Positions 1-63,700 of a DNA stretch of 64,000 nucleotides are shown here, one piece after another (within the stretch, counting starts at the first letter, position 1; every line of letters starts with the position of its first letter). Under the pieces are notes generated by a model. The model ran no database searches. It had not been told where the DNA came from and saw nothing but the letters and a program-made list of their open reading frames with translations. The stretch comes from Protoeuglena noctilucae (Eukaryota). A program made the position numbers and the translations under genes. The DNA lies in NCBI GenBank assembly GCA_958009085.1, contig OY253672.1, positions 248,001 to 312,000 of the forward strand. Direction: 5' to 3'.

Positions 1-3000
1 ACGCTGCCAGGGCAGCTCCTGGGGCGTCTTCGCTGCGCACTGCTGCGCCCCTCGCGCGGGGCTGGCTGCTGGGCCTGCGGTCTCAGCCGCTGCCGTTGTC
101 GTGGCTGGCCAACGGCGTCACGCGCACCTCTATGCGATGCCTCGCTGGCAAGGCGGACGGTCGTCCCCGGCACGTGAAGCCCGAGCTGCCGCCGGACTTC
201 AGGCGAGTCAACCGAGTCGTTCCCGAGCCGTTCCGCCCCGCGCCTTCAGTGCTGTGGTGGCGACACCAGTGCAGTGGGGCCACGCCAGCCGCATCGACCT
301 GCCCGCTCGCTCTGCCTTGCAGCATGACAGAGGTGACGGCCAGCGGGTGCTGCGAGGGGTGCGGGGTGACGTTGCAGAGGGAGGACCCCGACAAGCCCGG
401 TTTCTTCCGGGTCCCCGAGAAACTGATCGAGGAGATTCTGGCAAATCGGCGGGCGGCAGCAGAGGGGCCTGAAAGTGAGGCCTGGGGTCTGCGCACGAGC
501 GCGAGAGTAGCAGCTTGGGTCTTGGTGTGACTGGACCAAGTGCATGGCCCGCGCAGGCATGGCGGCGAGGATTCGCGAGGCACAGGAGGCTGAGGATATG
601 GAGGGCGAGGGAGACGAGGAGGAGTTGGGGGAGTTGATGGGCGCTGATGGCTTGGACGACGCGGGGCGAGCGGGGGCCGGGGGCATGCCTTGGGAGGAAG
701 GGGGCGACGAGGGGCTGATTTCCATGGTGGTGGACGACCCGGAACTCGAAGCGCGGCTGGGAGGGGGGCGGAGGGACCGGGGCGGGTACGTGCGGGACGA
801 GGAGATTATGGAGATGCTGGAGGGCGAGCGGCGAGGGGTCACCGGGGCAGAGGTGGGTTGGGCCGTGTCGGGAATCTGATGAAAAGGTCTGCGAGTGTTT
901 GGTTCGAATATGCATGGCCTGTGTGCGTCGCTGCAGGCGCTAGCTCTGGAGGGCAACTACGCGGGGGAGGGCGTGGACGTCGTGGATGCGTTTGGGGCCA
1001 TGGCGGAGAGCTGGCTGGACGGGGGCCAGGGGAAGCGGCCAGCTATGCGGGACCAGGACATGGCCGGCCGGCCCAAGGTCCTCTGCGCGCGGTGCTTCAG
1101 GCGAGGGGCATGGTGGCGGGCATGGGTCCGCTGGGGGCGGGCGAGGTGATGCTGAGCGATTCAACAGTCGAGGGGTGCTATGACTCTCAGAGCCACGCCT
1201 TGCGGCAGAAGTGCCGTCCCCCGGGGCAGCTGACACCCCGGGGTTTCCATCGTTGCAGTGCATATGGCACGTGGCCCGCCCCCGCTAGGTCTCCCCACCC
1301 GAAGGCAAAGGGGTCGCCCACCCCGGGTTCTTGCACCCCTAGCCCCCTCGCTGCGCCCTAGGGCAGAATCGCCGTCCCAGAGTGGGACGATGCAGCCACG
1401 GGGGCGGGCGAGGGTGTGGGGGCACGCGACGCGACGCCCTTTGCCTATGCGCAGCCTGATCAACTACGGGCGCGTCAAGTCGGCGGAGGCAGAGGCACTG
1501 CTGCCCGAGTTCGACCTGCGCCGGCGGGTGGGGCGCAAGCTCGAGTCCCTCCGCGGGCGCAAGGGCGTCGTGGCGGTGGTGGTGGACGTGGCGGACTTTG
1601 ACGGCTCCCTGCCCCGATGGGCCCTGCAGCAGCTGCTGCCGCGCGACGCGGAGGGGCGCGCGTGCACCACGCCCGGCGTGCGGCTGGTGGTGCTCGCCAA
1701 CAAGGTGGACCTGCTGCCTCGATACGTCTCCGCCGATCGCCTCGAGATGTGGGTCCGGAGGCGCGCGCGGCAGGCGAGGAGCGTGGCGGGTGGGGAGCCC
1801 GCACGGTCAGCTGCGTCAGGCCCGTGACCACCCTCGCGCCCTCCCCCGTGCCCAGGGTGGCCTGCCCCGCCCTGACGCGGTGGTGCTCACGTCCGCGCGC
1901 ACGGGGTTCGGCATCGCCAGGGCCGTGGAGGAGATGGAGGTGCTGGCGGGGGACCGTGGCCAGGTTTTTGTGGTGGGGGCCCAGAACGCGGGCAAGTCAT
2001 CCGTCATCAACGCTATGGCACAGGTGGGGGAGGTGGCCGCCTCAGGCAGACGCTCTCTGCGACGCAGTGTGGCCACTCTTTGTCCGCGTGTGCCCCCGCC
2101 CGCAGCTCCAGGGCCACCCCCGCCCCCGCATCACCACGGCTGCGCTTCCCGGCACGACCCTGGGCGTGATTGAGGTGGACGGCCTGCTCCCCGGTAAGGC
2201 GCGCCTGTTCGACACCCCCGGCGTGCCGCACAATTACCAGCTGTCGAGCCGCTTGGGGAAGGAGGAGCTGGACCTGGCCATGCCCTCCAAGACGCTCCGG
2301 CCCCGCACCTACCGCATCGGGGCAGGCAGGAGCGTCAGCATCGGGGGCCTCGCCCGCCTCGACGTCATGGGCCTCTCGGGGGAGACGCTCTACATGACGG
2401 GTGGGGCCTGGGGATGGCTGGGGATGAGGGTGGGCCTGCACCCGCCACGGCTCATGTTCGTCATGGTCTGACGCCGGGCTCTCCGCCCCCGCAGTGTGGG
2501 CCTCCCCGTTGCTGGTACTGCACATGGGCGTGACCAGCAAGGCGGAGGAGGTGCGCGAACGGCACTTGTGCGGCAACCTCCGGCCGCCCTTAACTCGAGA
2601 GCGTACCGACGACATCGGACCCCTCGTGCCCACCGGTGAGCCGCTTCACCTGCCGCAAGGATGGCGTCGCATTTGCACATGCCTGTCCCCTGACGCCAGC
2701 CCTCCCCCCCGGCAGACGTGGTGGTCGAGGGCACCGAGTGGCTGCAGTCCACGGTGGACGTCCACGTGGCGGGCCTGGGCTGGGTGGGGGTGGGCATCAA
2801 GGGCCGCGCGGACTTGCGCGTCTGGGCGCCCCGCGGCGTGGCCATCACCACGCGGGACGCCCTGGTCCCCGACTATTCGGACCAGTTCGAGCGCGCCGGG
2901 TTCTCCGAGAACGCTGCGCAGCTTAAGTACGAGGTGCGGATGCCAGGTGGCGGACAGGGGAGGTGGCAGCGATCACTCTGGAACGGCCCCAGTCAAGGGT

Positions 3001-3352: not shown

Positions 3353-4732
3353 CTATGACCCCCGCTTGACACCCCACACGAGCGCCCAGTCCCCCTCCCG
3401 CTCGACCCTCACATCCGTGAGGTGCTCGCTGTATTCCCGCACGATCCCGTCCACCTGCGCCTCGACGATCCCCGACACGGCCACGCGGGCGCCGACCGCC
3501 GCGTAGCCCACCAGGCGATCTCGCAGGTCCAGAAGCGGGCCCTGCAGTATGTTGGCCACCACGATGTCGAACCTCTCGCCCGCGAGGGGCGTCGCGTCCT
3601 CGGCGCTGGGCCCGCACACCACGCACGCAAAGCGGCCGTCCACGCCGTTGGTCTGGGCGTTGCGCGCCGCCACCCGCACCGCCAGCGGGTCCGTGTCGGT
3701 GCCGCGCGCCTCCGCCGCGCCCATCAGGATCGCCGCGATGGCCAGCACGCCCGACCCCGCCCCGTAGTCCAGCACTCGGTCGCCGGCCCTCACGTTCCGC
3801 TTGAGCCATGACAGGCACAGGCGCGTCGTGGGGTGCTCCCCGGTGCCGAACGCCAGACCCGGCTCCAAGATGATGTGCAGGGCGGGAGCGGAGGGGTCGA
3901 GCGGGGGCGGCTGCGGAGGCCAGAGGGGGACTGCTCGAGCGTGGGTCTCGCGTGGCAGGCTCGGGGCAGGCACGTGGCGGCCCGTGCTTCTCGCCTCGCT
4001 GCCCTGGGGCACCACCCAGACGCCCTCGCAGGCGAGCACCGGGCGGAAGGCCTCGCGAACGGCCCGGGCCCAGTCCCCGACCAGCACCTTCCCCCTGGCG
4101 AAAGGCAGCGGCCGGCCCACTGCCTGCGAGGCCATCCGGACCGCCGCCTCGGCGTCCGCAGACGCCTCCAGGAACGCCACGACGTCGCAGGTGCGCCACA
4201 GCGCCTTCCCCGCCACATGCGCGTCAAAGATCTTCTCGCGCTCCTGTCCGTCCGGGCGGTGCTCTTCGATCAGCACGCTCACCCCCATCTCCATCTGAGT
4301 CTCGCACGACGTGAGGGTGATGTCATCGGCACCGGCGCAGGCGCAAGAGTGTTGTTCCAGGCCCAGGCGTAGCTTGCCACTGGCCAGCCTCACCAGGGCC
4401 TCCGAGATGAGCTCCGCCTCTTCGCCAGAAGCCGCGGGGATTGTGATCTTCACGCTCGCGACCTCGTCCGGGGACGCAAGAGGGTCGCCGACCGCCGCGG
4501 CGCGGCAGGGACGAGGCGGGGAGGGGCGCCCGTGTGCGCCCCAGCTGCCAGGAGCCTTTTTCCCGGACCCAAGGCGCCGAGCAGGGGCCCCAGCGAGTAT
4601 CTCACCGGCAATCGTCATCCGGCGGGGGTCGGCGGGGCGGGGGACCGGCTGGCGCGCGGCGGAAACGGTCCGCGCGGCCGCCGCAGCTCGCAGCGTCGCC
4701 TGCATCGCGCGGGCCCACGTGCGCGCAGCCAT
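3353..4732 (-). CDS. prmA: Ribosomal protein L11 methyltransferase (PrmA family) with organellar transit peptide
   Basis: LEPGLAFGTGEHPTT, VLDYGAGSGVLAIAA, GTDTDP, FDIVVANIL, SGI motifs; probable in-frame introns 4295-4393 and 3911-3994. Confidence 0.93.
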   Translation of the reverse strand: MAARTWARAMQATLRAAAAARTVSAARQPVPRPADPRRMTIAGEILAGAPARRLGSGKKAPGSWGAHGRPSPPRPCRAAAVGDPLASPDEVASVKITIPAASGEEAELISEALVRLASGKLRLGLEQHSCACAGADDITLTSCETQMEMGVSVLIEEHRPDGQEREKIFDAHVAGKALWRTCDVVAFLEASADAEAAVRMASQAVGRPLPFARGKVLVGDWARAVREAFRPVLACEGVWVVPQGSEARSTGRHVPAPSLPRETHARAVPLWPPQPPPLDPSAPALHIILEPGLAFGTGEHPTTRLCLSWLKRNVRAGDRVLDYGAGSGVLAIAAILMGAAEARGTDTDPLAVRVAARNAQTNGVDGRFACVVCGPSAEDATPLAGERFDIVVANILQGPLLDLRDRLVGYAAVGARVAVSGIVEAQVDGIVREYSEHLTDVRVEREGDWALVWGVKRGS

Positions 4733-4741
4733 CGTAGGTAT

Positions 4742-8340: not shown

Positions 8341-9523
8341 ATGGCTTGCGGCCATGTCCGTGATACGATGCGTATAACCGACCACGCTGTGCTTCGCCTG
8401 ATCTCCCAGTACGTGCCGCCCAAATGCCTGGCAGTGCTGTCCTGCACGTGCCGTGACGCACGTTTGGCGATCGCAGAGTGTCGACGGGACATCTCCTTCG
8501 GAAGAGAGCGCCTGCCTATCGTCTGTGACAGGTGACAAGCATGACGCACCCCTCACACTCACTCAGTCTCGACTCGTGGAGAGAGGGTCTCCCTCCTGTC
8601 CTACCCAGTGACCCATGCCGGCTACCCTTCCCGTTCGTGTACACGCCCGTCTGCGTCACCCGCCGGGGCGCGCCTGTCCACCGGCACTTCCGCGGGGTGG
8701 TGGACGAGCGCTCCTGCTCGTGCCAGGCATGCCTTCCCAACGACACGGGGCCATCTTGCCTGTGCCTTGCGGGGCAGCCCGGCTCCCTCTTCACGGGCCC
8801 CGGCCGGATGGACGTGCACGCATGCGCGCAGAGGGGGGGCGTCCTCTGGCAGTGCTCTGAGGCCTGCAGCTGCGGGGATGAGTGCTGGGCGCGCCTGACG
8901 AGACGCGGCCTGTGCGTGCCCGTGGTGCTGCGGCATGGCCCCGCGGGGTGGGCGTGCTACGCGGCATCGCCCGTCCGCCGGGGCACGTTTCTGGCAGAGT
9001 ACGCGGGCGTGGTGCTGACGTCCGCGGAGGCCGACGCGGCGCTGCGTGCGTACGACGCGGAGGGGACCGGGCACGCGCTGCTGGTGGTACGGGAGGCGAT
9101 GCTGGATGGCATAGTGGCCAGGCGAGTCATGCGGGGTGCGGGTGATGCAGGCAGTCACTTGCTAGCCAGAGCGTCACGGTCACCGATCCGCGTGCCCGCC
9201 TCAGGACGAACGTGGACGCGACGCGCCAGGGGAACGTCGCACGCTTCTTCAACCACCGCTGCGGGGCACCCGGCACCGAGCACGGCCCCAACACGGCCCT
9301 GCTGACGGTGCGCACGCGGGGCCTCCCCTTGCCGAGCGTGGGCCTCTTCGCCGCCAGGGACATCGAGGAGGGAGAGGAGCTCTGCATCTCGTACGGAGAG
9401 CCGCCCGATCTGGGGAGCGTGACGGTGGGCGAGGACGGCGTGCCGCGGGGCCCCGGGGGCGTGCGCATGGAGCGCTGCCTGTGCCGCAGCCCAGCGTGCG
9501 GGGGGTGGCTGCCGTGCCGGTGA
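8341..9523 (+). CDS. Pre-SET/SET/post-SET histone lysine methyltransferase, SUVR3-like
   Basis: DISFGRERLPI, Cys-rich pre-SET, GTFLAEYAG, DATRQGNVARFFNHRC, EELCISYG, post-SET CLCRSPACGGWLP; start is either 8341 or 8368. Confidence 0.88.
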
Positions 9524-9579
9524 CTGCGGGTCGGTCGGAGCGAGCGGCGTCCCTGAGAGGGCAAAGAGCGATGCCCCCG

Positions 9580-10855: not shown

Positions 10856-11043
10856 CGCCGCACGTGGGGCCCTGCCCCGACCCTCGGGATTCGCACGGGG
10901 TGTGGGGGCCCCCTTTCAAGCCTGGAGCCCGGCGAGGAGGGACCAGAGAGGCGTGATTGCGCGGGGAGGACCCCGGGAGGGTCGGCCGCGGCGCTAGGGC
11001 TGCCAGCAAGCCCACCTCGTCAGTCAGCGTTTCATGCCCGAAG

Positions 11044-13607
11044 TCAGACCAGCACCCGGGTGCGGAACATGAAGAAGAGGACATGATCTCCGACTTCCCT
11101 CGCCTCCACTGTGCAATCGACCCAGGGAACCGCCCTCTGCGGGGAAGGCGAGAACGGTGGGGGCGGTCGGGTGCAGTGCACGCCACGCAACCACAACCGG
11201 TCACGGCGTCACCAACACGACACTCACCTGACCCGAGTCTTTCGAGACTTCCACGACCTCGCGGCCCTCGAGGCGGCACCGGGCACCCCCGGCCACGTGA
11301 CGCAGCAGCGTCACCCACCCACCCCCGACCCCCCGGGTGCCGGGGAGGCCCAGGAGCAGCTCCCGGGCGGCGCTCCTCGTGACGCGGACAGCGAGTTCCC
11401 CCGTCGCGTCCCGCAGCGCGAGCACGAACAGCACCTCCTCGTCTTCTCCCTCCGCCCAACGCAGGCCGGTGTCGTACACCCTGCCGCTGACGGCCGCCGG
11501 CGCCCTGGCGCCCCTCTGCCGCTTCCTGGGACCCTCGGCGTCGGCTTCGTCGGGCAGAAAGGCCGTCAGACCCGTCGGCCACCCCACCACGCGGAACGCC
11601 CGTCCACCCCCACCGGCACACGCGTCTCGCACGGCGCGGACCGTGTCGACGGGCACCCCGCGGTCGTCAGGGATGGCGCGGAAGCCGGCGTCGACGAGCT
11701 GGCGATGCGACGCGGGGGGCAGTCCCCATAGCCCATGCGGGTGCGTGTCCCGGTCCTTCCACGTGACGCGCCCCACCGAAGCGGGTCGGTCCGGCAGGGA
11801 CACGAGGGGCCGGGGGGCCCACTGCGCGGGGAGAGAGTCAGGCAGCTCGCGGCAGGGCAGACGCGCAAGGGTGTCACATGGACGCTGTTGCCAGTCTCGT
11901 TGCAATGGAAAGCGCTACTTGCCTCCGTCAGCCTCTTGCCCTCCTCGTGCGCCAGCGCGGCCGCCTCCGACGTCGGGTTCACTCCCACGTCCGTGCGGAC
12001 CCTGGAAGTCCCCTCCCAGAACACCAGGCCGGCGCGGTGCGCCTCCCGCACGCACCCCATTCGCAACAGTTCCACCCACTTGCCGCAGCGCAGGTCGCGC
12101 AGAGGCCACCACGCCCGGTCAAACGAGGTCCCGACTGGAGCCGCACTGCGCCCCCCCGAGGACCCCCCTTCCCCCGCTTGCTGCCCTGCCCCCGCACTGC
12201 CGGTGCGGCCATCGTTGGAGACGAGCGGCACGATCGAGCCGTACGTCGGAATGGACGGCATGAACTCCCACGCTCCACTGCGCGTTCCCAGGGGCAGCGA
12301 GTCAGGTATGCCAGACAGAGAGACACGACCCCCTGTACCGCCCCTCTCCGGGGCAGTGCCTTCCCCACTCTCCACGCGCCCGTCGTCCGCATCCGCTCCC
12401 CGCGCCTCCTTGTCGGGCGCAAGCTCCGGAGGCGGCACGTCGCTGCCGTCCCACACGTAGAACACGGGGCGGGACGCCGGCCGGCGGTGCACGGCGACGA
12501 CCTGCGACCATCCCGAAGCAGCTGCCTGTGCTTGCCTTCCGGCCCCTGAGTGCGCACCCACCCGCACCTGGCACCAGCCCTCCTTGCTTGCGCCCTCCCA
12601 CCTGCACGTGCACGTTCAGGGCCGCCCCCTGTCCCGTGTCGCAGAGTCGCTGCACCCCTGCCGGGGCCACGGGCTCCGCGCCGTGGGCAGCCGCCCGCTC
12701 CTCCCACACGAGCCTCTCCTCCGCCCAGAACTCCCGCATGGCCTCCACGCGCCTGCGGTCCTCCTCCTCAAAGGTGTGGTCCCGCCCGCTGGACTGCAGG
12801 GGGTCCAGGGATGCCCCGGGGGTGCCGTCGAAGAACAGCCAGGCCAAACGAGACCCTCGAGGTCCAGACAGACCTACGCGGCCGGAGTATTCGCCCAGGG
12901 GCCCACCGCGGGCTTCATGGGCGGCGGCCCTGGCCGGCACAGCCTCGGCGAGGACACGGTGGAGGCGGACCACTTGGCCGACGTGGATGAGGTCGTCGCT
13001 GCGGACCGAGGAGGCAAGGTCGCAAGTCAGGAGAGGCGAGGCGAGGCCGCTGCTTGTCATGGCGCAGCAGGGGGGGAGGAGCAGCAGGGGGGGCACACAC
13101 CGTGGGAGATGGGCCGGGTCGGCCGCGAATATGTTGATGGACATCGCGGGCGGCGCACGTTCCTCCCCCACCGGCGAGTACTGCAGTGGCGCGCCCGGCT
13201 CGCGGCAGAAGGAGCTGTCCGTGATCATCAGGTTCACGTACCAGTCCCTGCGGCGTTGGAGGGGTCCGCGCGCTCGAGCGTCCGAAATTGCATGCGAGCA
13301 AGAGTGCGGCGGTCAAGCGTCCTCACGCCGTGCCTTTTGGACTGGGATATCTTGCTCGCGGAGACCACGACGCCATACACGTTGACGGTCCTCTTTCGAT
13401 CCCCCGGAATGCCCTGCACAGCAGTCCAGTGGGTCGCGGGGCCCTCCGTTGCATCACACATGCCAAGAAGATGCGGAGTCGGCGCCGCGATTCGCCGCGT
13501 GCAGAGCGCGCGGGGCTGTCCGCGCCAGCGCTCACTTCGGGGGGCAAGATGGCATGGTGCACCTCGCGCAGGGTGCTATACACGAAGCGCTCCTGTTGCG
13601 GCGGCAT
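11044..13607 (-). CDS. POT1: Protection of telomeres 1 (multi-OB-fold ssDNA-binding protein)
   Basis: Spliced N-terminus MPPQQERFVYSTLREV..VNVYGVVV..DWYVNLMITDSS..SINIFA..HLP..GQVVRLHRV..WLFFDG..VEAMREFW (OB1); FYVWDGSD and GKWVELLRM (OB2); FVLALRDATGELAV (C-terminal OB). Confidence 0.8.
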
Positions 13608-14141
13608 CGGGACAGATCTTGCACAGGTAGCGGAGCGGGCGAGCCAATGATGCCCTGCCCACGGTTCGAACGCTGACACGATGTCTGCTCAATGCCTTCG
13701 CTGAACCCGCGTCGCTTCCCCAGAGTCCACGAGCGCCCTGCGGAGCGCCAGTTCGACCAGGTGCGACCAGGTCGTGGGTCTGTTGCAGCCCATCGTCCCG
13801 CGCGACCGTCGTACGCCTCTTCGTGCGCTGGCGTTTCGCCTGCGCCCTTACTCAGCAGCGCGGGGGTGTAGCAGGGCGTGGTCAGTGTCCAGAGCCCCCC
13901 TTTGCTCCATGGAACTCGCCGCGCTGACCGGGCCACCGAGCGCGGCGTTTCGCTGGCGGCCCGACCTCCTCTCGTCGGTCCAGCTGCGAATTCTCCACCT
14001 CGAGCTTACTAGGGTGTGAGAATTCGTCCGTTCGAAAGATTGGGCTCACCAATCGCCCGCCTTTCGCTCTGTCGAGTGGCCAAGCATCAGCTAGCTGGTT
14101 GGTTGTGGCTGACTGCCCTCCATGGCCCGCTGCGGTGACTG

Positions 14142-17100
14142 ATGAGGTGCCCGAGCCCTTTCCCCGCTCTCATCGGGCTGGTCGTTCTGTCGAGCGCGGC
14201 GGGGGCGCTCCGCGTGGGCTCCGGCGGGCTGGGGGGGTTGTTCTCGTACGGCGCCCTGGGCGGGAGCATCTACGAGCAGTGCAAGGCGAGCGGGGCGCTT
14301 CGGCGCTCCCGGAGGGACCTAGTTATCAGTAGATAGCGGCTGACCGTGATTTATGAGCCTCTGGCAACGCCGCTGGGCTAGGGGGTGCAGGCCCCGACAG
14401 AGCCCCGACCGCTGCTGCCCGGACCTCGCTTGCGCAGAATACCGTGGACAGCGAGGGGACGGTGTGCGCGCACGGGGGAGTCCTGCACGCCGAGAATTCC
14501 ACGGCGTCGCAGAGCTGTCACTACTGCGACTGCGAGGGGGGCTGGGGAGGCATCGAGTGCCGGCTGTGCTCGAACGTGGACGTATGCCAGCCCCGCGTGA
14601 CGGATGACGGCGTCGTGGTGCCCCCGATCGGGTGCTCGAGCGACCATATCGACCCGCTCGACGAGGAGTTCGAGTGGCACGGGGGCAAGACGTTCGACTG
14701 CGCCTGTGGAGGGGATGACCCTTCCACCCAGTGGGTGTGCGACCAGAGCAAGGGGTACAACTACCAGGTGCACGTGGTGAAGAGCGACGCAGGGGACCTC
14801 ACCATGACCGGTGAGCAGGGGCGCCACCGGTGCGGTGCCGTCGTGAGGGGCTGCGGCACGGTGGTGGTCTGCAATCCCTCCCGCCATGCGCCGTGCGTCG
14901 CAGTCAGGGAGCGGGCGCCAGTGCCGAGCATGGACACCGACCCGGTCCTCTTCGCATTTGTGTACGCGCAAGTGTGGGACGCCGAATTCACGGGCTGCTC
15001 CGTGTTACGGGGGCCGTGCCCCGAGGAGATCCAGGGCGCCCCCTCCTGTGTCACATACAAGTGTCACACCGGGCAGGTCACATGCCCTCCCCAAGGAGTC
15101 ACGAAGGTAAAGCTGCGTGAATGTGGTTTTGGGTGAATGTACCCAGCGATATTCTTTCCTACTTCACAGCGTGGACGACCCTCCTGCCGCACCGCAGTGC
15201 CCCGGCTGGAGTACCGTCCCGCCCTACTGCGATATCGCGCCTGAACGGGACAAAGCCTACTACCAACACAACTGCAACCCCCTGACGCTCCCGTCGAGCG
15301 GGGTGCCGTCCGAGCTCGTGTGCTCCTCTGTTCGCGACCCTGCCACGGGCCAGTTCCAGTGCTACCTAAAGCAAGAGGGGGCTTTCCTGGCGGCCTTGGG
15401 CATGCGGTGCTCATCCGGACAATGCCTCTATTCGACCATAAAGCCCCCAGCGCCGACCCCTCCCCCTGACAAGCCTACGTGGGTCAACCCCTTCCCTGAA
15501 ACGTCGGCCATTGCCGGCCTCGTGGCCTCGCTTGCCGCGACACTCGCGGCCGTGGCGTTCGCGTTTGGGTTTCACAGCGACCTGAAGATGTCGGGGAGAC
15601 GCGCCAATGGAGGGGGGGACAGCGGCGGGGGTGTGAGCAGCACTGGGGAGGTCAGTGATGGGAGTGATGAAGACGGGGCTGGGGGCGCCAGTCGTGGTTC
15701 CGAGGCAACAAGGCTGCTTCATGGGGCAGGGAGGTCGCGGATGTCCGCTGCCAGCTCAACAGCCCGGATGCAAGTTGGGAGGGCAGCTGCCCGAGAGGAA
15801 GGCGCGGCGTTTGTGTTTGAGAAGGGCGCAGAGACGGTGCACGGAGTGCGCGAGGACAGGAGCTCGCGGTCCGCTGCTCCTGCGACTGCGTGGCCTGGGA
15901 GCGGGGTGGCTCGCGTCACTGGGGACGTGGAAAGGAGTCGCGTTGGTTCATCAGGGCTTGGGGAACGGGCGCCGACAGCCCTTACCTTTTTGGATATCAC
16001 CTTGGCTGTCTTCACCATCACGGGCAAGCCGCAGATGGTTTTGCGGGGCGTTAGTGGGGTCGTGGGGTCACGGAGCCTTTTGGGTGCGGGTTACCCTCGT
16101 CAAGACACCAGAGCTGCAGCTGTTGGGTGAGATATTACCCGACGGACAAGCGGGGTCTAGGGTGCTTGTTCTTGGAGCGCCAAAAACGAGCAGGAACTGT
16201 TGTGTTGCGCTTCGTGCTTTCAGGTCGGCACTCTCAGGAGCCTCCGGGGCAGAGCCGGGTTCCCTGACGGCTCTCATGGGACCCTCGGGGTCAGGCAAGT
16301 CTTCTCTCTTGGATGTTCTATCTGGGCGAAGATGGGGGGGAATTGTGGGGGGCCAAGTGGCGCTGAACGGGCGTGTGGTGGATGCGGGGACTCTGCGCAG
16401 GGCCGTGGGCTACGTTACTCAGGACGACGTGCTGCCCGCCAGCAACACCGTCTTTGAGCACCTCCTGTTCCACGCCAATCTCCGCATCGCGCCCTCTCCT
16501 GGAGAAGGGCCAGGCGCCTTGGCTCGCCGGCGGCATGACCGCGTGTGGGAAGTCTTGACGGCGCTGGGCCTGGATCGCGTGGCGCACTCCGTCATCGGCG
16601 GTACGCTCGTGCGTGGCATATCCGGGGGCGAGAAGCGCCGGGTGTCCATTGCCGTGGAGTTGCTTTCCTCAGCACAGGTGCTGCTGCTGGACGAGCCCAC
16701 GACTGGCCTCGACAGCACCAACGCAGCGCACGTGGTGGACATCCTCAGGAAGGGTGAGAATACGGCTTGTTGGATCCCGTAGTCCCCCTGTATGGAAATG
16801 ATCGTGCCTGCGCAAAGTCACCGACCACTTAGTGTGTCGCAGTGTCGGCGTCAGGCGTCCCTGTGCTGCTTTCCATCCACCAGCCAAAGCCGGAAGTGCT
16901 CCGCATGCTCGACAACCTCATTCTCCTATCGTCCCGCGGCCAATGCATCTACAGCGGGTCGCTGGCCGCGGCGCACGCGCTCTTTGACACGATGGGGATT
17001 ACGCAGCCCCCAGGTGGGGACATGACGTTGGCGGATGTGTTGCTGGATGCGGCCATCAAGCTTCCATTGGAAACCGTCGAAGAGATGGTCGCCGAGTACC

Positions 17101-21447: not shown

Positions 21448-22327
21448 TCAGCCGCTGGGATGGATGAGGCCCTTCCCCGCCATCCACGGCACCTCAGCAG
21501 CGAGCCACGGTCCCAGACCTAGGCACAGAACGTGTGCGAGGCCGAAGCGGGGGCTGTTGCGTGTCCAGAGAGGCCTGAAGTGCATATCGACGCATATCTT
21601 GCCTCCGCGGTACATCTTGGGCGTCAACCCTTCCAGCTCCGGGAGCTCTGCAGAAAAAGCAGGGCCAGCAACCGTGACACCCTTGGCCCCACTGGTGCAT
21701 CCACACGCCACCCCATACCGCGCGGGGGCGCGGGGGCGCTCAGACAGCCGTGGGCCCAGACACCGCTGACAAGGCTCCCCGGTGCGCGGTGCCATGACAT
21801 CATGGGCACGCACCAATCTCCGGGGCCGCGTGTGGGTACGCTGCTGGGAGGGTCGTCCGCCACGCAAACTCGTACCGCTGCATGTCGTGCTGCACCCAGC
21901 ACCGCCCCTGCCATTGGACACCATTGGAGGTGGGCGGGTCCACCTGCAAGCACGGCACCTCGTCCTGGGGCTAGCCTCCAGCTCAGGGGTCGTCGCAGCA
22001 AACCCTGCCGGCCAGGTCCCTCACCGAGAACCAGTCAGTGTCGCGGGCCTTCATGTCCGCAATATAAGCTATGAGGGCCCCGAGCTCCTCCTTGAGCCGC
22101 TCTGCAAGTCAAAGAGCCACTTCGGCGAGCCCAGTGCGTGGTAATAGGTGAATAAAGCCAAGGCCCCTCCAAAAACAGTTGAGCTCTTCGAGCTCTGGAC
22201 AGTCTGCCTCGCCTGTCCATTTTCCACCGTCAGAGGGAGAGGCGTCCACCGTCAGGGCCGGGATTCGGCGCAGCGCCGAGGAGGTCGAGGGAACGATGAG
22301 GCGGTCGCTTTCGCCCTCGTCCCCCAT
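21448..22327 (-). CDS. UFC1: Ubiquitin-fold modifier-conjugating enzyme 1
   Basis: [90 protein letters not shown]. Confidence 0.95.
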
Positions 22328-41670: not shown

Positions 41671-42303
41671 ATGCAGCCCGCCCCTAACGCCACACCGTCC
41701 AGGGCCGCGTGCAAATGCTCAGCGTCGCCACGTGGAACGTTGTCGATTAGGCGAAGCGCCGGGCAGCAAGGCAAGGCCCCTGACTGCGGAGGCGGCTCGC
41801 ACGTACGGGCTCATGTGTGCGGGAACAGTTGGCTCACTCCTCGCCCGCAGAGGCGCGGCCCCAAGATCACGGCGTCGTCAAAGCCCTGCGCAGCGTTCTC
41901 CTGCGCAATGCGGCCAGTCGCCTGGATCGCGGGCCAGTCTCCTGCCTGCGCTGCCGAGGCGCGGGCCAGTGCAGCTGCGAGCAGTGCAAGGCGAGCCCGC
42001 CGGGTCACCATCGCCTCCTCGCTACCTCGTACTCCAGCGTTCTGTCGTTCTCACCGCGGTCCATCTCGCCACCCGCAGGGTTCAGGGCTGGTGACCCCTC
42101 CGGGAGGGCCCACCGCGTGGATCAAGGGGTCCGTGCTGGGTGCCATGTTCAACAAAGCGCTGGGGGCGTCGGCGAACTACCGGGTCACGAATCGGTGCCC
42201 CAAGTGCCACGGGACGGGCAAGACGCCGTGCAGTGCGTGCGGGGGTCGTGGGCAGCACAACCTGAAGCTCCCAGTGGAGGAGGGCGCCTCCGCTGCCAGG
42301 TAG
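41671..42303 (+). CDS. DnaJ-type Cys-rich zinc-finger protein without J domain (DnaJE1/BSD2-like class)
   Basis: Four CxxCxGxG repeats after splicing: CLRCRGAG, CEQCKGSG, CPKCHGTG, CSACGGRG. Confidence 0.85.
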   Translation: MQPAPNATPSRAACKCSASPRGTLSIRRSAGQQGKAPDCGGGSHVRAHVCGNSWLTPRPQRRGPKITASSKPCAAFSCAMRPVAWIAGQSPACAAEARASAAASSARRARRVTIASSLPRTPAFCRSHRGPSRHPQGSGLVTPPGGPTAWIKGSVLGAMFNKALGASANYRVTNRCPKCHGTGKTPCSACGGRGQHNLKLPVEEGASAAR

Positions 42304-47382: not shown

Positions 47383-50845
<3,463 letters not shown>

Positions 50846-52774: not shown

Positions 52775-54118
52775 ATGAGCGTCGCTGCGCAATCCCCTCT
52801 CTGTGGCTCCAAGCGCCTAAGGAACAGCGGGGAACGCGCGTCTTTCGACGCCTCGGAGGAACCGCACTTCGGGAGAAGGTGAGAGGTTGCTCGGAGATGC
52901 CGTCCGTGCACCCATGCTCTCGCCGCCGAGGGCCGGCACGCAGAGCTAGGGTGTGCTTCGGGCGCGGGGTTCCCGTGCCGAGGCGGTGGTTCTTGGCGCA
53001 CGCTCAGCACCACATCTGGTGGAGAATTCGATCTGTGTTCTGATGCCGCTACGACATCGCCAACGAAACGCTGTGGCCCGCGTCGGCGTGCAGGGTTCGA
53101 CAAGCGCGCGGCGTCCAGCCCGCGGCAGGGCCCAGCGGTCACTTCTCAAACCCTTTCGAGCCTCTTGCGGGCCTGTCTGAGACGTTTTCTGCCCTGAAAG
53201 CCCTGTTCCCGACGATGGACGACCAGGTGCGGACAGCACGGGGCAGGCTGCGGGGCTGAGGGTGCGGGGCCCATGGCGCAGATCCCTGACGCGGCGCGTC
53301 GTCCGCTTTTCGCTGCAGGTCGTGTCCAAGGTTCTGGATGAGTGCGGGGAGAACATCGACCAGGCCATCAAGCGCCTGCACGAGCTGCAACTCCAGGATG
53401 CGGGGTCGGCCATGAGGGCGGAGGGGCAGGTCAGCATGCGCTCTGCGGGCGTTTGATTGCGGTGTCGAGGAACCGGCGGTCACCGTGTGCGCGGGAGGGC
53501 CGAGATCTGTGCCTTTGGTCCCCGCAGGCTGGCCCCAAGTCTGATGGGACGCCCGACACAGGCGCCGGGCCCTCCACGCCCCGGGAGGCGGTTCCGGAAG
53601 ATCAGCTCCGCGGCCCGCAGAGCGCCGAGGAGTGGATCGACGCACTGGTGACCGAGATGTCGGCGGCAGCGGACGTGCCGGACGCCCGGCAGCGGGCCGC
53701 GCGGGTGCTGCAGGCCTTCGAGTCTAGCACGCGGTCGCGGGTGGCGGAGGAATCGAGCAAGGAGATCGCCAACCTCCGCCGCGAGCTGTCGGACCAGCTG
53801 AGGGACAATGGCATCCTCAAGCGCGCCGTCACCATCCAAAACCAGCGCATCCAGGCAAGCTGAGCCGGCGTGCTGCTTTCGTGACATCGCCGGTACCGGA
53901 GTGCCGGGCCCGTCTCGAGAGCTCTCGTTGAGCTTCCCCGCATTTGTGCTGCGCAGGAGGCCCAGCACAAGGACCACGAGATGGCGCAGCTGCGGCATTT
54001 GCTGCAGAAGTACCAGGAGAAGCTGCAGACGCTGGAGATGTCCAACTATTCCCTGTCTGTGCACCTCCGCCATGCCTTCTCCCCCGCCCCGGACAGGCGC
54101 CCCCCGGACGTCTTCTGA
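52775..54118 (+). CDS. CUE/UBA-like domain protein of a plant-conserved family
   Basis: MSVAAQSPLCGSKR; LKALFPTMDDQVVSKVLDECGENIDQAIKRL; EWIDALVTEMSAA..DARQRAARVLQAFE; NGILKRAVTIQ; LEMSNYSLSVHL; PPDVF*. Confidence 0.85.
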
Positions 54119-54472: not shown

Positions 54473-57400
54473 ATGTCGCTGAGGGGCCTGGTCACGGGGA
54501 CGGACGCCTGCACGACCGCCGACGCACCCGGCCCCTCCAATCCTCTCTCGCGCTTGGCCGGTGAGATATAGGACGCCCCTGGCCGGTCTGGCTGAGCGAG
54601 TGGAATGTCCGACCTGGTTGTTTTAGCGCGACGGCCAAGAACACGCGTTTGCCGCACACGCACTCAGATGCGCTGCTCAACTCGGTCGGTAAGGGCGGGA
54701 CCAGCGGCCAGGAACTTCCGCGACATGTGCGTCGTGAGGATGGCGCAAGCGGCTCACAGACGGGGCATGGGCTCCTCGCGCCAGGGCGGGGGCCGCAGGG
54801 ATTCGGGCCAGGGATCTCAGGTCCGTCCAGGGGGCGACGCTCGGCCTCGAGACTGTTCGCGTTGCATTTTTATTAGATCCAGGAAACGGTCGATTCATGG
54901 TGCCTGCCCTGCAGAAGCCGACGTGAGCGAATTTCTCCGCGGGCACGGCCCCGGGTTGGCGGGCGATGCCGCGCAGCGCGCTGCGTTCGAGGGCGCTTTC
55001 CAGGATGCATCCAGCAGCCGTCTTCATCTGCCGATGGCAGCCGACCCGCACCTGCGACTGGAGGCACACCTGGGCACCTTTCTGCGGGGCGGTCCAGTGG
55101 AGCAGGCCGGCCCGCTCCCTCACCCGCTCAACGTGGAGCAGCAGGTGAGGATCAGAATGGTTAGAGTCGTTGCTAACCATTCACGTCCTGCGCATGCGCC
55201 GGGAGCGACTGGCCGCTCTCCTTCGCGACCGCCCCCAGGTGCGCATCCGTGACCGCTGCACCATCCTCGCCAGGCACGTCTTCTCCTCGCGGGAAGCGGA
55301 CGAGAGGGTGTCCGACCTGCTGCGGTTTTTCGGCATCGACGCGGCGCGGCTGCCCATGCGGCTTCAGGCAAGCAGACCCGCGCGAGGCTGGGTGCGTGAT
55401 GCCATGCTGGGAGAACCGGTGGTCCCGAGACAGCAGCCCGCGAGCGGTGGCCGCAGAAGGAGTGGGAAGCCGCGTGGAATGGCGGGAGTCAGATGATGAC
55501 GGAGCCACCAGCGTGGGTTGACGACTTCCAGCGCCGCCTGCACATCAGCGCCAAGCAACCAGCAGCGCAGCAGGTGCGGCTCGGCAGTCGCAGGCGCAGT
55601 CGCAGCGCACGTGGTGGGAGATCGCAACAACAAGCTCAGTGGCTCGTTGCAGGGGCTGGACTGGGCCAGGGAGTTCGGTTCTGCGGCGCCCAGTGCTGCC
55701 ACGGCGGCCCCTGCGTCATGGGGAGAGGAGTTCGCCGCGGACGGTGCCCGGGACAGGCCGGCCGAGGCGTGGGCGCAGGACTTTGGGGAGCAGGAACGGG
55801 CGCGTGGCCGGGACAACCCCCCCAGCGTGGCCGCGTCCTCCGCCGCGCTGGCCCAGGCGCTGCTGTGAGGGCCACAGCTGCACCGCGCTGCCCTCCTGCA
55901 TGTAATATCGCATTGGCATCTCATCGTGCCTCCCCTGCCCTCGTCGCAGGTCCTCCGACGACCCCAAGATGCAGCAGTCGGTCTTTGCGTCGTTTGTGTC
56001 CAAGATGAGCCGAGGGGAGCTGTCCATTGAGGGGAACAGGGTGGTGGAGGGCGCTGTGGCCAGGCAGGGGGACGCGTGGGCGGGGGAGTTCGCTGAGGTA
56101 AGGAGCCCGGCGTTGCTTGCCCAGGCAGCGGCCGGCAGGGAGCGGGCCGGGCGTCACATGCTAACGGCACTGCTCCCGCAGACGCAGCGTTCCGGAGCCG
56201 AGGGTCGCTGGGCGGACTCGTGGCTGCGGGAGTTCGAGGGCGCCCCCCGCGCCCAGGCGGACCTGGGCCAGGCGGAGCTGGGCGTGTCGGGGGCAGACCT
56301 GGCGGCGTGGGTGGAGGACTTCCATCGGGCGGCGACCGAGGCCGGGGCGCCGGGGCAGCTGCAGGAGCTGCAGCGGGTGTGGGCGGAGCAGTTCGGGGGC
56401 GGGATGGCGCACGAGGACCCCTGGGCAGAGGAGTTCATGGCGGCTGGGGCCGGGGGGTACCGCTTCCATCCGGACAACCCCTTCGCCGGGGATACGCAGG
56501 CGCTGGAGCGAGGGCGAGCGCTGTTCGCGGAAGGCCTCCTCAGCGAGGTGGGTGGGATGCGCTGGGCATGCGCGCTGGGGATGCCTGGGCTGCATGGCTC
56601 CCTGCCGCCCCACGTGCCGCGCCTCATCTCTCGCTGCAGGCCGTGCTGGCCTTGGAGGCCGCCGTTCAGCAGGAGCCGGGGAACGCGGAGCGGTGGCGGC
56701 TGCTGGGCGCGGTGAATGCGGAGAACGACGACGACGGCCAGAGCATCGCGGCCATGCGCGAGGCCCTGCGCGCCGACCCGGCCAACCGGGAGGTGCTCAT
56801 GTCCCTGGGCGTGTCGCACACCAACGAGCTGCACGAGAGAGACGCCATTGGCTTCTTGCGCCGGTGGCTCGAGACGCACCCCACGTACAGGCGCGTGGAT
56901 GGAGCAGCGTGCAGCGTGCGAGGGTCGCATGTCCACTGCGCGTCTGTACCTTACGACGACCCGCGTTTCTTCCGCAGTTCCACCTCCCTGCCCACCCACG
57001 CCGACTCTGAGCCTGGGGCCCTCTCCCGGGCAACAGCGGAGGCCTTCGCAGCCCTGGCGCAGGCCCACCCCCACGACCCGGACCTCTTCATAGGTGAGAG
57101 GAGGGAGGATGCGGAATAGCTATGCTCCCAGTGCATGCGCCTGCCTCGTGTCTCATTACACTCGTTACCCCTCCCCCCAGCCACTGGCGTGCTGCACACG
57201 CTGCATCGGGACTATGACTCCTCCGTGGAGGCTTTCCGACGGGCCCTGGACCTGCGGCCCCACGACTATAGCCTGTGGAATAAGCTTGGCGCCACGCAGG
57301 TGCGTGGGTGGGGTACGGCACTCGGGAACGCCACGCATGTCATGTGTGGGGGCGAGAAGGGATGGACAGCATCGTTCGGCGATTTGTTCGCACAGCGGTG

Positions 57401-58062: not shown

Positions 58063-59973
58063 CTACTCTGCCCTATGCTCCGCGCCTGGACACTCCGTCC
58101 GGATCCTCTGCTTGCGCCTTTCTTCGCGCTCTTGCGGGCGCCCCCGCGACCCCTGGACGCCCCCATGGCTCTCAGCAGCTGAAAGGCGTTCTTCACGCTC
58201 CGCTCCTGCTCGCTCCCTGCTGCTACGCGTGGACCTGGGGGGTAGCACAGTCGACATGCATCGCAAGAGCGCCAGCTGCAGCAGCTAGAGACTGCACTGA
58301 CTGTCGGCACCATGCCTTTGTACCGACGAGACGACATGGCACTCCTCACCGTGGCCGTCCTGTGCGACCCCCAGGGTCCCTGCACCCTTGCAAGGAGCTG
58401 ACGGTTCAGGTGCTGCTTTCGACTCCTGCCCCGTCGCCCCCGGCCGCCCACTCGTGGTGGCAGCCCCTGGTGAAGCATCCTGCTGCCTTTCGCCCCGCTC
58501 CTGCCATGCCGTGCCCCAGGAGTCATCTGCGCCGTACGTATGCCCCCAGTCCGCACCCCACGACCTCTCCCACCCCAAGGGGTCCTCTTCCCAGCCCCCC
58601 TCAGCGTCTGTGCTCCCTTCCACCCGACTGCTCGTCGACTGGCTCCCAGAGTCCACCTCCCCCGTGCTTCTACCGCTCACAATATCGTCCTCCGAATCCC
58701 GCCCGCCCTCGTCTTCCTGCCCCGAAGGCCCCTCGTCCTCCTCAGAAAGCCCCTCGCAGTCGGACACCACCGCCACCGGCCGCGACGCCCTGGCCCTGTG
58801 CGACGCCCCAGCGAAACCCGCCCCCGTCGCAGCACGTGCGACGTCAGACACCGCGGCCTCGCCCTCACCGTCCCCGCCTGCGCCTTGCTCCCCCCCGCGG
58901 CGTGTCCTCTTTGCGCCACGTGTGCCTTTCCCTGCAAGCCCAGTCGCGAGCGCTTGATAAGAAGCGCCAGCTGTGATCATCATGCGAGGAAGTCACGTGA
59001 GCAAAGAGCAAAACCCACCTTTTGGTTTGGTCGCCCTGCACCGTCGCCGGCCCCGTCCCACGTCGATGACTTCAGCATCAAAGACAGAGGCCGCCGGTCG
59101 GCCCCACCGCTCCACCACGCCCCCGGAGCATGCCGCCGCGGGCTCCCCCGCCCGTGCCCTGCAGCCGCCTTTGCTGCCGTCGTCCCTGCGCCACTCCCCA
59201 TCGCCGGGACGCGGCCCATGTGCGGCACAGCGGGCGTGCGCGACGCCCCCGCGGGCTGCCGCTTCGACCCCCTCTCTCGTGGCACTCCACAGGCTGGCAC
59301 CAGTCACGACCCTCTCTGGCCCCGGCTCAGGGGGGCCCCAGCTGGCCTTGCCGCTGTGGACAGGTGCCACCGGTGCCTGGCTGGGTCTCTTGGGCGCACG
59401 CTCTCTGGACTCGACTGCGCAGGCGGAAGGTTGGCAAGGTGCCTGGCTAGGAAGACAGGCGCTGGCAAGGCACGGCCATGAGCCTCACAGCATTGCCGCT
59501 CTCACCTTGGGTGGTGAAGCGCTCCCAGACGTTCCGCACACCGATCTCCACGCCTCCACTCAACGGCTGCCTGCAGAGGGCGGGTGGATGTTTTGGATGA
59601 ACCGTAGGGGCACCTGCGCAGGTGCTGCCGTGCATCTGGCCACACAGCAGGGGCACCTGTTCTTCCCACTGAGTTGCTCGTAGGCCCACTGCAACGCCGA
59701 GAAGGCCTGGTGGGAATCCAGCCCGCTGGACCGCGCTTTGTCCGGGTGCAGCTTCACGACGAGTTGCTGCGGGCCATGCAGCGCAGGTTGCTAAGCCGCG
59801 TGGCGCGGCGCGACCTGCCGTGCGGTTCATGAGACCACAATGTCACTCGCCTTGTATCGCGCGCGGACATCGGTCGCCGTGGCGCCCCGTGCCAATCCGA
59901 GGACCGTGAACGGGTCCTTCCCCGCCTGCAGGACCCGCTGGATTTCACCGGCGAGTCCCACACCGTCGGTCAT
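58063..59973 (-). CDS. J-domain (DnaJ) protein with long low-complexity acidic C-terminus
   Basis: Spliced DPFTVLGLARGATATDVRARYK|QLVVKLHPDK..AFSALQWAYEQL; 3' end uncertain (58011-58285). Confidence 0.78.
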
Positions 59974-60702: not shown

Positions 60703-63700
60703 ATGATCACATGCGCACCCCCCTCCGGCGCCCTCTGTCGCAGAAGGACGATGCCTCAGCCACGCTGCCCCAGTCGACCCTTAAGGGACCCCTTGTCGCT
60801 CCGGGCCCCGATCTGGCTGCCGCGGCGTCGCCCCCGGCGAGGACGGCGAACAAGGCCGAGGATGGGGCCGTGGGCACGGAGCCCATGGACCACGCCCTGC
60901 CTCTGAACCCACGCCTCGCTGGGCCCTTCCCCACGGCCGTCCCTCGCTTGGCGCTCGACATGGCCGACGCGATGACCCCCGAGCTCCGCAGCGACGCTGT
61001 GTCCGTCGAGGGGCACCGCGTGGTGCGCGGGGAAGCGAGGGAGGCACTCCAAGGGGCGGAGGGGCTGGGTGTTGACACAAAGGGTGGCCGTGGCACCAAG
61101 CGCCCAAACGGGGCAGCACTGGAAGTGTCGGGGGCTGAGGGAGGGGCGGGGAAGAGGGCATGGGGGACGCGCGAGGGCAAAGGAGAGGGCGGCTCTGGCG
61201 ACGTCGAGAAGGGCCTGGAAAGAGTGAACGACACCGCAACGGGCGCACCTGCACCGGGTCAAGACGGCACCGTCACAGCTGCAGATGCCTTGCCTGCTTT
61301 GGAATGGGGTGCTGAGGGGAAGGCAGAGTCGGGGGGCGAGGGCGTGGGGAGCGACGAGGGGGAGGCGGGGGACGAGGGCGCGCTGTGGCGTGCGGCCACG
61401 CTGTCTCTGTCGGCACTGGTGGGCGGTGCAGGCGCGGTGGGCGTGAACGAAGCTGCGTGGCAAGGGTGAGCGACCAGCTCCACAGGCTATGTGTCTGCGC
61501 GCGACCTCGGCTGCGGGAGCGCCAGGTCCTGTCCCCGCCCAGTAGCCCTATTGGTTTCTAACTGCTCAAGTTGTCGACCCGCAGGGCTTTGGAGGAGCAG
61601 CGGCGCCGAGTGCGCAGCGTTTGGCGGCGGTGGGAGCTGGGGCGGTCGGGGGGCTTTGGGTGCGTGGCTGCGGAGCCTTTGGGCGGTCTGCGCGGCGAGG
61701 TGCGCGCTCTCATGGAGGCGTACAACCGCATGGTGGCGTCGCGGGAGACGCGGAGTGCGTGGAGGGAGGTGGACGCTGCGTTCATCGCCCCGGAGTGGCT
61801 GGTAGGCCGCACCATCAAGGTCAAGGCGAGGGCTGCAAGAGCAGTCAAACATCACTCATCTCGCTTAGGGTTGCTGAGTGCGTGACAGGTGCATGACAGC
61901 AGCACCCTCCCTCGCCGCAGTTTATGGGGGAAGGAGGTGCTGCGAGCGGGGACGGCCGCAACGCCAACCTTCGCTACTCGTGGTTCGAGGCCAGGGTGGT
62001 GGGGTACGACCCCGCGTGCCTCATGCACACGGTGCTGTACGCGGACGGCACCCTCAGCGTGGCGTGCTTCCTGTTGGACGGCCTGGCCATCCAGCTGCAC
62101 CTGGGGGAGGTGGTGCCGGGTGAGGGAGGGGGACACAGCGTGGCTGGGCTCTGCGTTGGCATACGCATGAGGTTGTGCCATGGCAGTGAGAAGGTCTGGT
62201 GGGTGAAGCAGTCGTCGCCGATGGCATGCAAATGAGTCCTCTCTTGAGCCGCAGAGCCGGACGCCTCGACGCTGCGAGCCTCGGCGGCGCTGCTGCGGCA
62301 CTCCGCGGAGGTGGCGGGGCGGTTCGCTGCGTGGCGTGCAGCAGAGGGGGAGGGCGAGGACTCCGGGGCGTTCCCCAGCGCAGACTTGGACATGCAGGGG
62401 TTCACGGGTGAGGCATGGGTGTCCACACAGCCCTTGGAGGTGGGGCAGCAAACAGAGATACAAGGACATGGCGTGATGGGACAGATGCAGAGACGGGGCT
62501 GCGGTCTCTACGGCACTCGGATGTCGTCCCTTCCTCTGCCTACATCGTCCCTGTGCCGTCCCCACACTCGCTGCACCTTACCGCTGCAGTGCGTCGGCAC
62601 GCCGACTTCGCCACGTCCGTCGCGGCCCTGCGCGTGGCCCTGGGAGAGGTCCAGAGGGGCGCGGAGGGCGACGCGCTGCGGGCAGCGTGGGCAGCGGTGC
62701 TGCATCCCCCAGAGCAGCGGTCGGTGCGGTGCAGCTTCGGGGGGGAAGCGGGGGCCGGGCGCAGGGCGCGGGGTGGCGCGGGGCGTGCGGCGGTGGAGCG
62801 GCAGGTGAAGGAGATGGTGGCGGGGCTGGTGGACGAGGCGGGGGGCGCGAGGGCGGTCGCGGATCTGCAGGCGCGTGCGACGTGGCTGGCGGGCGTGGCA
62901 GGGCAGCTGGACGCGGGCGCGTCGCTGGCGGAGGCGACGTATGCGCCTGAGATAATAGCTAAGGGGCTGGCATGCGCGGAGGAGGTGGTGTGGGCGCGGG
63001 CGGCAGAGGGGGTGCCGTGGGTGGCGGCGCTGGTGGGGACCTGGGAGGACCTGGCCCGGTGGGGCGGGGGGGCGCAGCGGCACGGCCCGGCGGACCGGGT
63101 GGCGGTGCAGGCGTTTGCCGGGGAGGAGTCCGACTGTGCGTGGGTGGCGGCCGTGGCAGTGCGACCCTTCCCCGCGGGTCTCAGGGAGGGCCTGGCGTCG
63201 AGCTTGGCGCCGTCCAGTTTGGGCCGGGTGCGGGAGTATCTGGAGGAGGACGCGCTGCCGGACATGATGCGGCTGCAGGACAACACGGGGTGGTACGTGG
63301 AGGGCACGTCGCAGGGGGAAGCGGTCCGGCGCAGTGACCCGCGGTGGGCGGCGGGGGTGCCGGAGGGGGGGTTGCAGGTGAGACGCGCCGCGAAGAGCAC
63401 TGCGGGTGTTTGTGAGGGACTCTCTTTGAGGGAAGAGCCAGGTGGTCGTGGACTGTTCCTCAGGATTTGTCGGTCATTACGCTTCCATTGCCCTCCCCCC
63501 GTGTCCCTCAGGTGGCCCCCGGTTTCTTCCTAGAGAGCGTCGGGTCGGTGGAGTACTGGGACCTGCGATACCACACGGAGAGGGACGTGTACCCTATAGG
63601 CTACGCCATGCGCACCACAGTCCAGCGGAGCAAGGGCAGGGAGCCTGAAGAGTTCCGCTGCAGCATCCGGGCCTCCCCCACGGGGCCGGAGTTTGTCGTG

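Follow-up and report, generated by a model that had tools for sequence, protein, structure and literature searches.

Frequent GC-AG introns with a strong donor consensus in a 64-kb window of GC-rich algal DNA

The DNA analysed here, a window of 64,000 bases free of N from contig OY253672.1 (positions 248,001 to 312,000, forward strand; assembly GCA_958009085.1, Protoeuglena noctilucae), carries intron-containing genes in which a large share of the introns starts with GC instead of GT and keeps the AG end (GC-AG introns). Exon translations match ordinary eukaryotic and organelle-targeted families - YqeH/NOA1 GTPase, PrmA, UbiE/COQ5, SurE, mitochondrial carrier, CobW/ZigA GTPase, RFC1, FtsH, the 24-kDa subunit of complex I, a J-domain protein and a full-size ABCG transporter - and our self-trained gene-finder models put intron density at about five per gene. 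G+C content lies between 63 and 71% across 4-kb bins and intron interiors are 66% GC, so that the window shares the high G+C of genomes rich in GC-AG introns. In searches of a protein collection with single-exon queries, the FtsH11-like protein and the ABCG protein found their best named relatives among green algae (Pedinophyceae at 69%, Myrmecia and Coccomyxa at 64%, and also Haematococcus, Dunaliella, Ostreobium, an Ostreococcus transcriptome and Chloropicon), which places the source organism in the green lineage; no named protein exceeds 70% identity to the window proteins. As candidate sources, Pseudoscourfieldia marina was dropped for its 57% GC and paucity of introns, and Prasinoderma coloniale has a published GC content of 69.8%, in a paper whose main text never uses the word splice. 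Among words sampled from a 10-kb stretch, 34-57% were present in four marine metatranscriptome runs of one study and 100% in four runs labelled with one organism. We take the source genome, at 68% GC, to belong to a marine green-lineage alga.

An initial annotation of this window had placed GC donors at 28 sites, 26 of them with GCGAG or GCAAG, and every coordinate proved correct: exonic AG is followed by GC at 28 of 28 sites, and only 56891 (GCGCG) and 13333 (GCACG) depart from the two continuations. Its estimate that about one intron in five is GC-AG (28 of roughly 140) has held up as well. Counting the gene-finder set together with introns known from other evidence only, GC donors make up 35 of 127 introns (27.6%, 95% confidence interval 20-36%), far above the usual ~1%, and GT donors the other 92 (~72%); the GC share is 6 of 15 among the listed introns with RNA support and 29-30 of 120-125 among ab initio predictions. 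A count that needs no gene model points the same way, with the heptamer AGGCRAG (R, purine) occurring 52 times in the window against 26.4 +/- 4.7 in shuffled sequence (a count that none of 100 shuffles attains) and AGGTRAG 28 times, compared with 11.2 +/- 3.9. Frequent GC-AG use is confirmed, at a rate that matches or, if anything, exceeds the one claimed. That all 28 listed sites are genuine GC donors is a claim that stands in part, since five have RNA support, seven are backed by homologues or profiles, four by weaker hints and 11 by the gene finder only, and one, 13333 on the minus strand, has no support, its frame staying open to a good GT donor ~100 nucleotides (nt) downstream.

RNA evidence comes from contigs of marine metatranscriptomes, a study different from that of the DNA runs; three RNA runs (X1, X2, X3) and one DNA run were aligned to positions 22100-42099, and each intron-like joint was slid within its stated ambiguity to find canonical placements. 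Among the 14 joints listed, nine are GT-AG and five GC-AG, and at those five no shift yields GT..AG. Two of the five, on the plus strand of the RFC1-like gene and seen in both X1 and X2, are the introns 33350..33431 (joint 33347>33430, canonical only at a +2 shift) and 35269..35357 (joint 35266>35356), the exon upstream of the latter ending at position 59 of 59 of the AAA_lid_RFC1 profile. The intron 34051..34136 (plus strand, X1 and X2), absent from the list of the initial annotation, follows from joint 34049>34136, where a +1 shift gives GC..AG, and the remaining two, both plus-strand and from X1, are 41771..41850 (joint 41768>41849; donor aag/GCAAGG, the slash marking the exon-intron boundary) and 41991..42078 (joint 41988>42077, short side 23 letters). 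A sixth GC-AG junction was obtained from a loose end: X1 and X2 contigs align from 22213 and their 30 unaligned letters equal 22072-22101 exactly, so that 22102..22212 must be skipped in the RNA, the sole canonical reading being GC..AG on the minus strand (site 22212 of the initial annotation). Six introns are thus removed from RNA with a GC start and an AG end, and the nearby GT donors that could have undone the GC assignment are possible at none of these junctions among the 15 RNA-supported introns listed. Within the RFC1-like gene the GC share is three of 11, next to eight RNA-confirmed GT-AG introns that serve for comparison (plus strand, X1 and X2, spanning 32431..35070): 32431-32525, 32661-32797, 32939-33055, 33569-33653, 33799-33922, 34234-34368, 34697-34776 and 34956-35070. 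One further claim, that every GC donor is preceded by exonic AG, is true of all 28 listed sites yet fails as a rule, because the RNA-confirmed donor at 34051 reads ccg/GCGAGT; exonic AG is not obligatory.

Relatives fetched with single-exon queries were aligned back to the window, and all GT and GC donors lying in frame and at most 60 nt to either side were scored against them. The claimed GC donor came top at 17573, 28465, 29048, 29613 and 48723, and by a small margin at 17784. Seven GC donors are fixed by continuity of homologues or profiles (1101, 1774, 17573, 29048, 29613, 48723, 59850), and for the four of them scored against alternatives (17573, 29048, 29613, 48723) all GT alternatives align worse. 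Two of the seven belong to the YqeH/NOA1-like GTPase gene on the plus strand. Across 1101..1454 the homologues P0249 (125>126) and P0267 (177>178) run unbroken through CARCF/SLINYG, and across 1774..1855 the TIGR03597 profile is continuous (about 123 on either side), while P0246, P0252 and P0259 align with no break in their coordinates and P0249 to within one residue. With 354 nt the first of these introns is about four times as long as the median of 92 nt, and a cursory look brought up nothing inside it. A comparison of exon 937-1098 with the Protein Data Bank (PDB) gave chance matches only. In the full-size ABCG/PDR transporter gene, the intron 17573..17651 (plus strand) is spanned contiguously by five of the five proteins tested (P0124, P0128, P0130, P0136, P0137), and its GC donor reaches a score of 166.6, the top GT alternative one of 139.8. 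The mitochondrial-carrier gene (plus strand) contributes 29048..29122, where P0001 has a gap of 25 residues exactly over these 75 nt, with a stop inside them and the GC donor scoring best, and 29613..29706, whose removal restores PMDVIK/TRLQ (PLDVVKTRLQ in P0001), the GC donor scoring 131 against 107.5 for the nearest GT and the downstream exon beginning at position 31 of the Mito_carr profile. For 48723..48819 (plus strand) in the FtsH11-like gene, the TIGR01241 profile passes from position 185/186 to 187 and four homologues are ungapped across KNPSQ/FTRLG (the GC donor scores 250.8, the top GT 235.6 and the strongest other donor 238.6). In the J-domain gene, finally, the 84-nt intron 59767..59850 (minus strand) holds two stops if read through; the upstream exon ends with the 22 residues DPF...RARYK and the downstream one begins at position 23 of the DnaJ profile.

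Weaker hints point to four more of the listed sites. A probable GC-AG intron of the ABCG gene, 17784..17865 (plus strand), has the best of six in-frame donors (114.4 vs 109.6), and the probable first intron of the carrier gene, 28465..28556 (plus strand), was called ab initio and has the top donor score, four of five alternatives hitting stops, which is weak support. In the Fip1-motif gene, 24314..24392 (plus strand) is likewise a probable ab initio call; an X2 RNA piece ends at 24311, the leftmost equivalent cut, its joint not being among those listed. At 3911..3994 (minus strand), a possible 84-nt intron of the PrmA-like gene that was also called ab initio, the initial annotation had allowed for read-through, and the frame is indeed open, yet the spacing of Pfam and PDB relatives fits better when the 28 codons are left out, which leans towards splicing and is not decisive. 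The sites predicted by the gene finder only are 9122..9204 (plus; SET-domain gene), 11822..11922 (minus), 14286..14437 (plus; near the 5' end of the ABCG gene), 30689..30778 (minus; CobW/ZigA-like GTPase gene, where profile spacing is not conclusive), 35531..35607 (plus; RFC1-like gene), 37489..37569, 39230..39321 and 39506..39606 (all minus), 53855..53956 (plus), 56891..56977 (plus; TPR gene, with the off-consensus donor GCGCG) and 61826..61920 (plus). It further predicts GC-AG introns outside the original list, at 203..322 (plus) and, with several weak donors among them, at 12278-12379 (minus), 17117-17212 (plus), 20003-20161 (plus), 38487-38582 (minus), 43009-43142 (minus) and 55368-55456 (plus).

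This self-training gene finder uses 3-periodic Markov coding models on both strands, models intron lengths explicitly and scores donors and acceptors by matrices. With a GC prior of 0.2 it converged to 120 introns, 30 of them GC, and from a prior of 0.01 with GT-only seeding to 125 introns, 29 of them GC, so both runs end at 23-25% GC. It recovers 10 of the 14 RNA joints and 22 of the 28 sites of the initial annotation, the six missed sites including three confirmed by RNA and two supported by homology. A model restricted to GT donors was ~208 log units worse, recovered seven rather than 10 of the 14 RNA joints and put wrong GT donors at three of the three RNA-confirmed GC introns it modelled, which bears out the warning that standard predictors will mis-model such genes. 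Decoy donors (GG or GA) drew 10-20 calls, and since 8 of 10, 11 of 18 and 15 of 20 of these fell on GC-intron loci the control is confounded; it suggests a rough background of 2-7 false calls among ~30 GC calls.

Apart from the donor, the GC-AG introns look like their GT-AG neighbours. Median length is 92 nt in both classes, base composition is nearly equal, and lengths are narrow throughout (80-137 nt from the 10th to the 90th percentile). The acceptor is CAG in 122 of 127 introns, and TATCC at +2 to +7, as in the U12-type donor RTATCCTT, occurs in none of the 127. The GC-AG introns are ordinary U2-type introns of the major spliceosome that differ from the GT introns by one base. A branch-like CTRAY motif (Y, pyrimidine) was seen between -45 and -8 in 15 of 127 introns only, and the branch signal is either degenerate or different.

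What does set the GC donors apart is their flank. The full core AG/GYRAG is found in 29 of 35 GC donors against 18 of 92 GT donors (Fisher p = 6e-11) and in 12 of the 13 GC donors with independent support, so GC donors are limited to a strong consensus. Over 33 GC and 92 GT donors, the mean number of matches to U1 small nuclear RNA (snRNA) is 5.52 vs 4.66, A at -2 is present in 91% vs 67% and A at +4 in 91% vs 51%; the U1-complementary flank is stronger in GC donors, with the proviso that predicted sets carry selection bias. In these sets, the statement of the initial annotation that GT donors are the more degenerate class is borne out, and its proposal that flanking pairing makes up for the C at +2 fits the figures. 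Full-core donors have C rather than T at +2 in 29 of 47 cases (0.62), as against six GC donors among 80 outside the core, and the same ratio C/(C+T) in intron interiors is 0.304/(0.304+0.188) = 0.62; the heptamer excesses (~26 for AGGCRAG, ~17 for AGGTRAG) give a C share of ~0.60.

We consider it highly probable that these are ordinary U2-type nuclear introns of a GC-rich green-lineage alga, about a quarter of which have C at +2 and a compensating flank. A standard U1 has the 5' end ACUUACCU, known as universal, and a standard U6 the ACAGAGA box. Strong genomic GC bias may keep pushing the T at donor position +2 towards C, and such a C, a mismatch to standard U1 snRNA, would be tolerated only where exonic AG, the purine at +3, A at +4 and G at +5 pair near-perfectly with U1 and U6; at perfect donors +2 would then be nearly neutral and drift to the compositional equilibrium of intron DNA. 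Pairing with a standard U1 and an origin by mutation bias are what we infer from the donors and their composition. Because compensation is so strongly needed, a C at +2 still looks like a costly mismatch and the machinery looks standard. What we see is most likely the same compensation that GC-AG introns are known for elsewhere, with GC pressure as the amplifier.

The numbers can be read in other ways. Had the splicing machinery changed, through a U1 5' end that pairs with both C and U at +2 or through altered U1C, U5 or U6 contacts, C at +2 would be no defect, and both the equality of the C share in full-core donors and in neutral intron DNA (0.62 vs 0.62, as if +2 were not read) and a GC rate of ~28% so far above the ~1% of most eukaryotes would follow. 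We find this unlikely, as GC is rare outside the full core (6 of 80 against 29 of 47 inside), which means that other positions pay for the C, and as 92 of 127 donors keep GT. In the window, which holds no snRNA gene at Rfam gathering thresholds, nothing speaks directly for a variant. In animals and plants, moreover, a standard U1 splices GC-AG introns that have a strengthened consensus. The need for compensation makes the variant-U1 half of the explanation offered by the initial annotation less likely. A milder version, somewhat easier to entertain though still improbable to our minds, is that +2 is effectively invisible to selection at donors with five perfect neighbours, be it through changed recognition (U1 5' end, U1C, U6) or through drift or GC-biased conversion swamping a tiny cost; if drift or GC-biased conversion were responsible, the GC-AG share would measure the strength of GC bias and be predictable from intron composition across eukaryotes.

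That the GC donors are modelling artefacts, with real donors at nearby GTs or with coding sequence retained and a true rate that is ordinary, draws on the in-frame GT alternatives near many sites (the GT-only model has an overlapping GT intron at 23 of 29 GC loci), on 3911-3994 being readable through, on the open frame at 13333 and on unspliced contigs in X3. It is, however, irreconcilable with the six RNA junctions, where no GT placement yields the observed product, and it runs against the poorer homologue alignments of every GT alternative at 17573, 29048, 29613 and 48723, the stops inside 29048-29122 and 59767-59850 and the AGGCRAG excess, which is independent of gene models. Such an artefact is already largely refuted for 13 introns and is very improbable overall. 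Still harder to credit is an origin as copies of a mobile introner carrying a fixed GCGAG donor, by analogy to Pelagomonas, whose introners have been described as carrying GT or GC donors (bioRxiv 10.1101/2021.10.25.465678). The donor is very uniform and the lengths are narrow (80-137 nt), yet all-against-all blastn of 125 introns returned one reciprocal 21-nt match (E ~1e-3), and that between two GT introns; similarity shared along intron length, the mark of introners, is not seen, length and composition are as in GT introns, and the uniform part is the U1-complementary core only.

Several points weigh against our preferred reading of ordinary, flank-compensated U2-type introns at a high rate. 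That rate was measured in one 64-kb window, and its extension to the whole genome, though we infer it, is a step beyond this figure. Eleven of the 28 sites come from a self-made gene finder only, which misses four of 14 RNA joints, makes decoy calls, fragmented the ABCG gene and overlooked several small genes. The 14 joints belong to a longer list with 38 more, so joint counts apply to those listed. The consensus contrast is partly built in, a rarer donor type needing a better motif score to be called, and it is small in the RNA-only set, where the full core is present in five of six GC and four of nine GT donors and U1 match counts are nearly equal. The pairing argument draws on donor sequences. 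Run X3 has unspliced contigs, at 33037-33505 over a GC intron and at 25849-26290 over a GT intron, which may be DNA carry-over, pre-mRNA or retention. The DNA run has no letters differing from the window, but the assembly was probably built from the best DNA run itself, which for that reason does not independently exclude T/C errors; the RNA contigs are without intron bases.

GC-AG introns as a major class are known from other algae. In Emiliania huxleyi, a haptophyte, ~55-65% of donors are GC, verified by reverse-transcription PCR, attributed to a genome of 65% GC and linked to mis-predicted gene models (Feldmesser et al. 2014, PMC4028052; PhycoCosm paper, PMC7779022). Our window resembles that case in its origin from a GC-rich marine alga, in its large share of GC-AG introns, in the retained AG acceptor and in the failure of GT-only gene models; it differs in supergroup, in rate (~28% vs 55-65%), in that GT is still the majority here and perhaps in the confinement of GC to near-perfect donors. 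For pelagophytes, predicted shares of 14-17% in Aureococcus anophagefferens and ~14% in Pelagomonas calceolata were attributed to GC content, the share being 0.32% in a lower-GC relative, 4% in Cyanidioschyzon and between 0.3 and 2% in plants and metazoans (bioRxiv 10.1101/2024.10.30.620910), and Pelagomonas introners end in GT or GC (bioRxiv 10.1101/2021.10.25.465678). Magnitude and proposed cause, high GC, are similar to ours, and those figures are predictions as most of ours are, but pelagophytes are stramenopiles with few introns per gene that are partly introner-derived, unlike the ~5 per gene without families found here. The ~1% of animal and plant introns that are GC-AG have a strengthened donor, in which better pairing elsewhere offsets the +2 mismatch, and this strengthened consensus has reportedly been documented in dedicated surveys. 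The window donors share their exonic AG, GC, purine, A and G, but are 20-30 times more frequent and mostly have G at +3 (GCGAG) rather than A, as do the GT donors of the window. The latter read (C/A)AG/GTG(A/C)G, with G at +3 in 88%.

A literature search that was partly loosely framed and had subscription journals, supplements and genome-portal notes outside its scope turned up no account of a green alga rich in GC-AG introns. What the window probably adds is a further lineage to those in which GC-AG introns form a major class. It may be the third unrelated lineage of this kind, within the wider kin of green plants, and if so would favour GC pressure over ancestry as the driver. A testable regularity emerges, namely that C:T at +2 of perfect-core donors equals neutral C:T in introns. 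In practical terms, GT-only annotation of this genome or of metagenomic relatives would get about a quarter of the exon junctions wrong, by truncating, shifting or splitting them.

One mis-modelled public protein may already be at hand. P0244 (98 residues, 99% identical), matching 2175-2468 on the plus strand, reads straight from an exon into the intron after 2399 and looks, from its sequence, like a prokaryote-style gene call on eukaryotic DNA. Spliced proteins of the species itself were found neither in the protein collection (three exons searched) nor in the representatives library (one exon), which returned relatives and a single read-through fragment only.

The one eukaryote-like metagenome relative found, contig L001 (69.7% GC), encodes at 9194-11521 an FtsH11 that is 70% identical and forms a single uninterrupted open reading frame of 776 residues, as against at least seven introns in the FtsH11-like gene of the window; its neighbouring genes are long open reading frames, too. 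Intron density differs sharply between these two similarly GC-rich relatives, a comparison for which L001 is the sole basis, the 79 other metagenome loci being 48-62% identical to the FtsH query. L001 looks intron-poor and so offers no comparison of introns for switches from GT to GC.

At 24939, 24973, 31260, 32122 and 37666 the match of X1 and X2 RNA contigs breaks off, and the contigs run on into letters foreign to the window; their loose ends of 30 letters have no match in it at up to two mismatches and define no junctions. Strain variants, paralogues, chimeric contigs and junctions to exons beyond the window are all conceivable sources. Contigs of both RNA and DNA are interrupted between 26304 and 26377, leaving loose ends to the left and right, and several DNA contigs have no other overlap than this stretch of ~70 bp, which is probably a short repeat or a node of the assembly graph and not a splice site. 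At 27517, in the region of the SurE-like gene, one X2 RNA contig (depth 3.8) is without two letters, a strain difference or a contig error.

The full-size (two-half) ABCG/PDR-type transporter gene occupies ~7 kb (14100-21300, plus strand), homologues of 1,600-1,900 residues aligning to 14399-21274. The gene finder is silent over 17802-19558 although homologues align there. The window between 16 and 24 kb is lower in GC (63-66%), with a strongly negative AT skew that reaches -0.15 at 16-20 kb.

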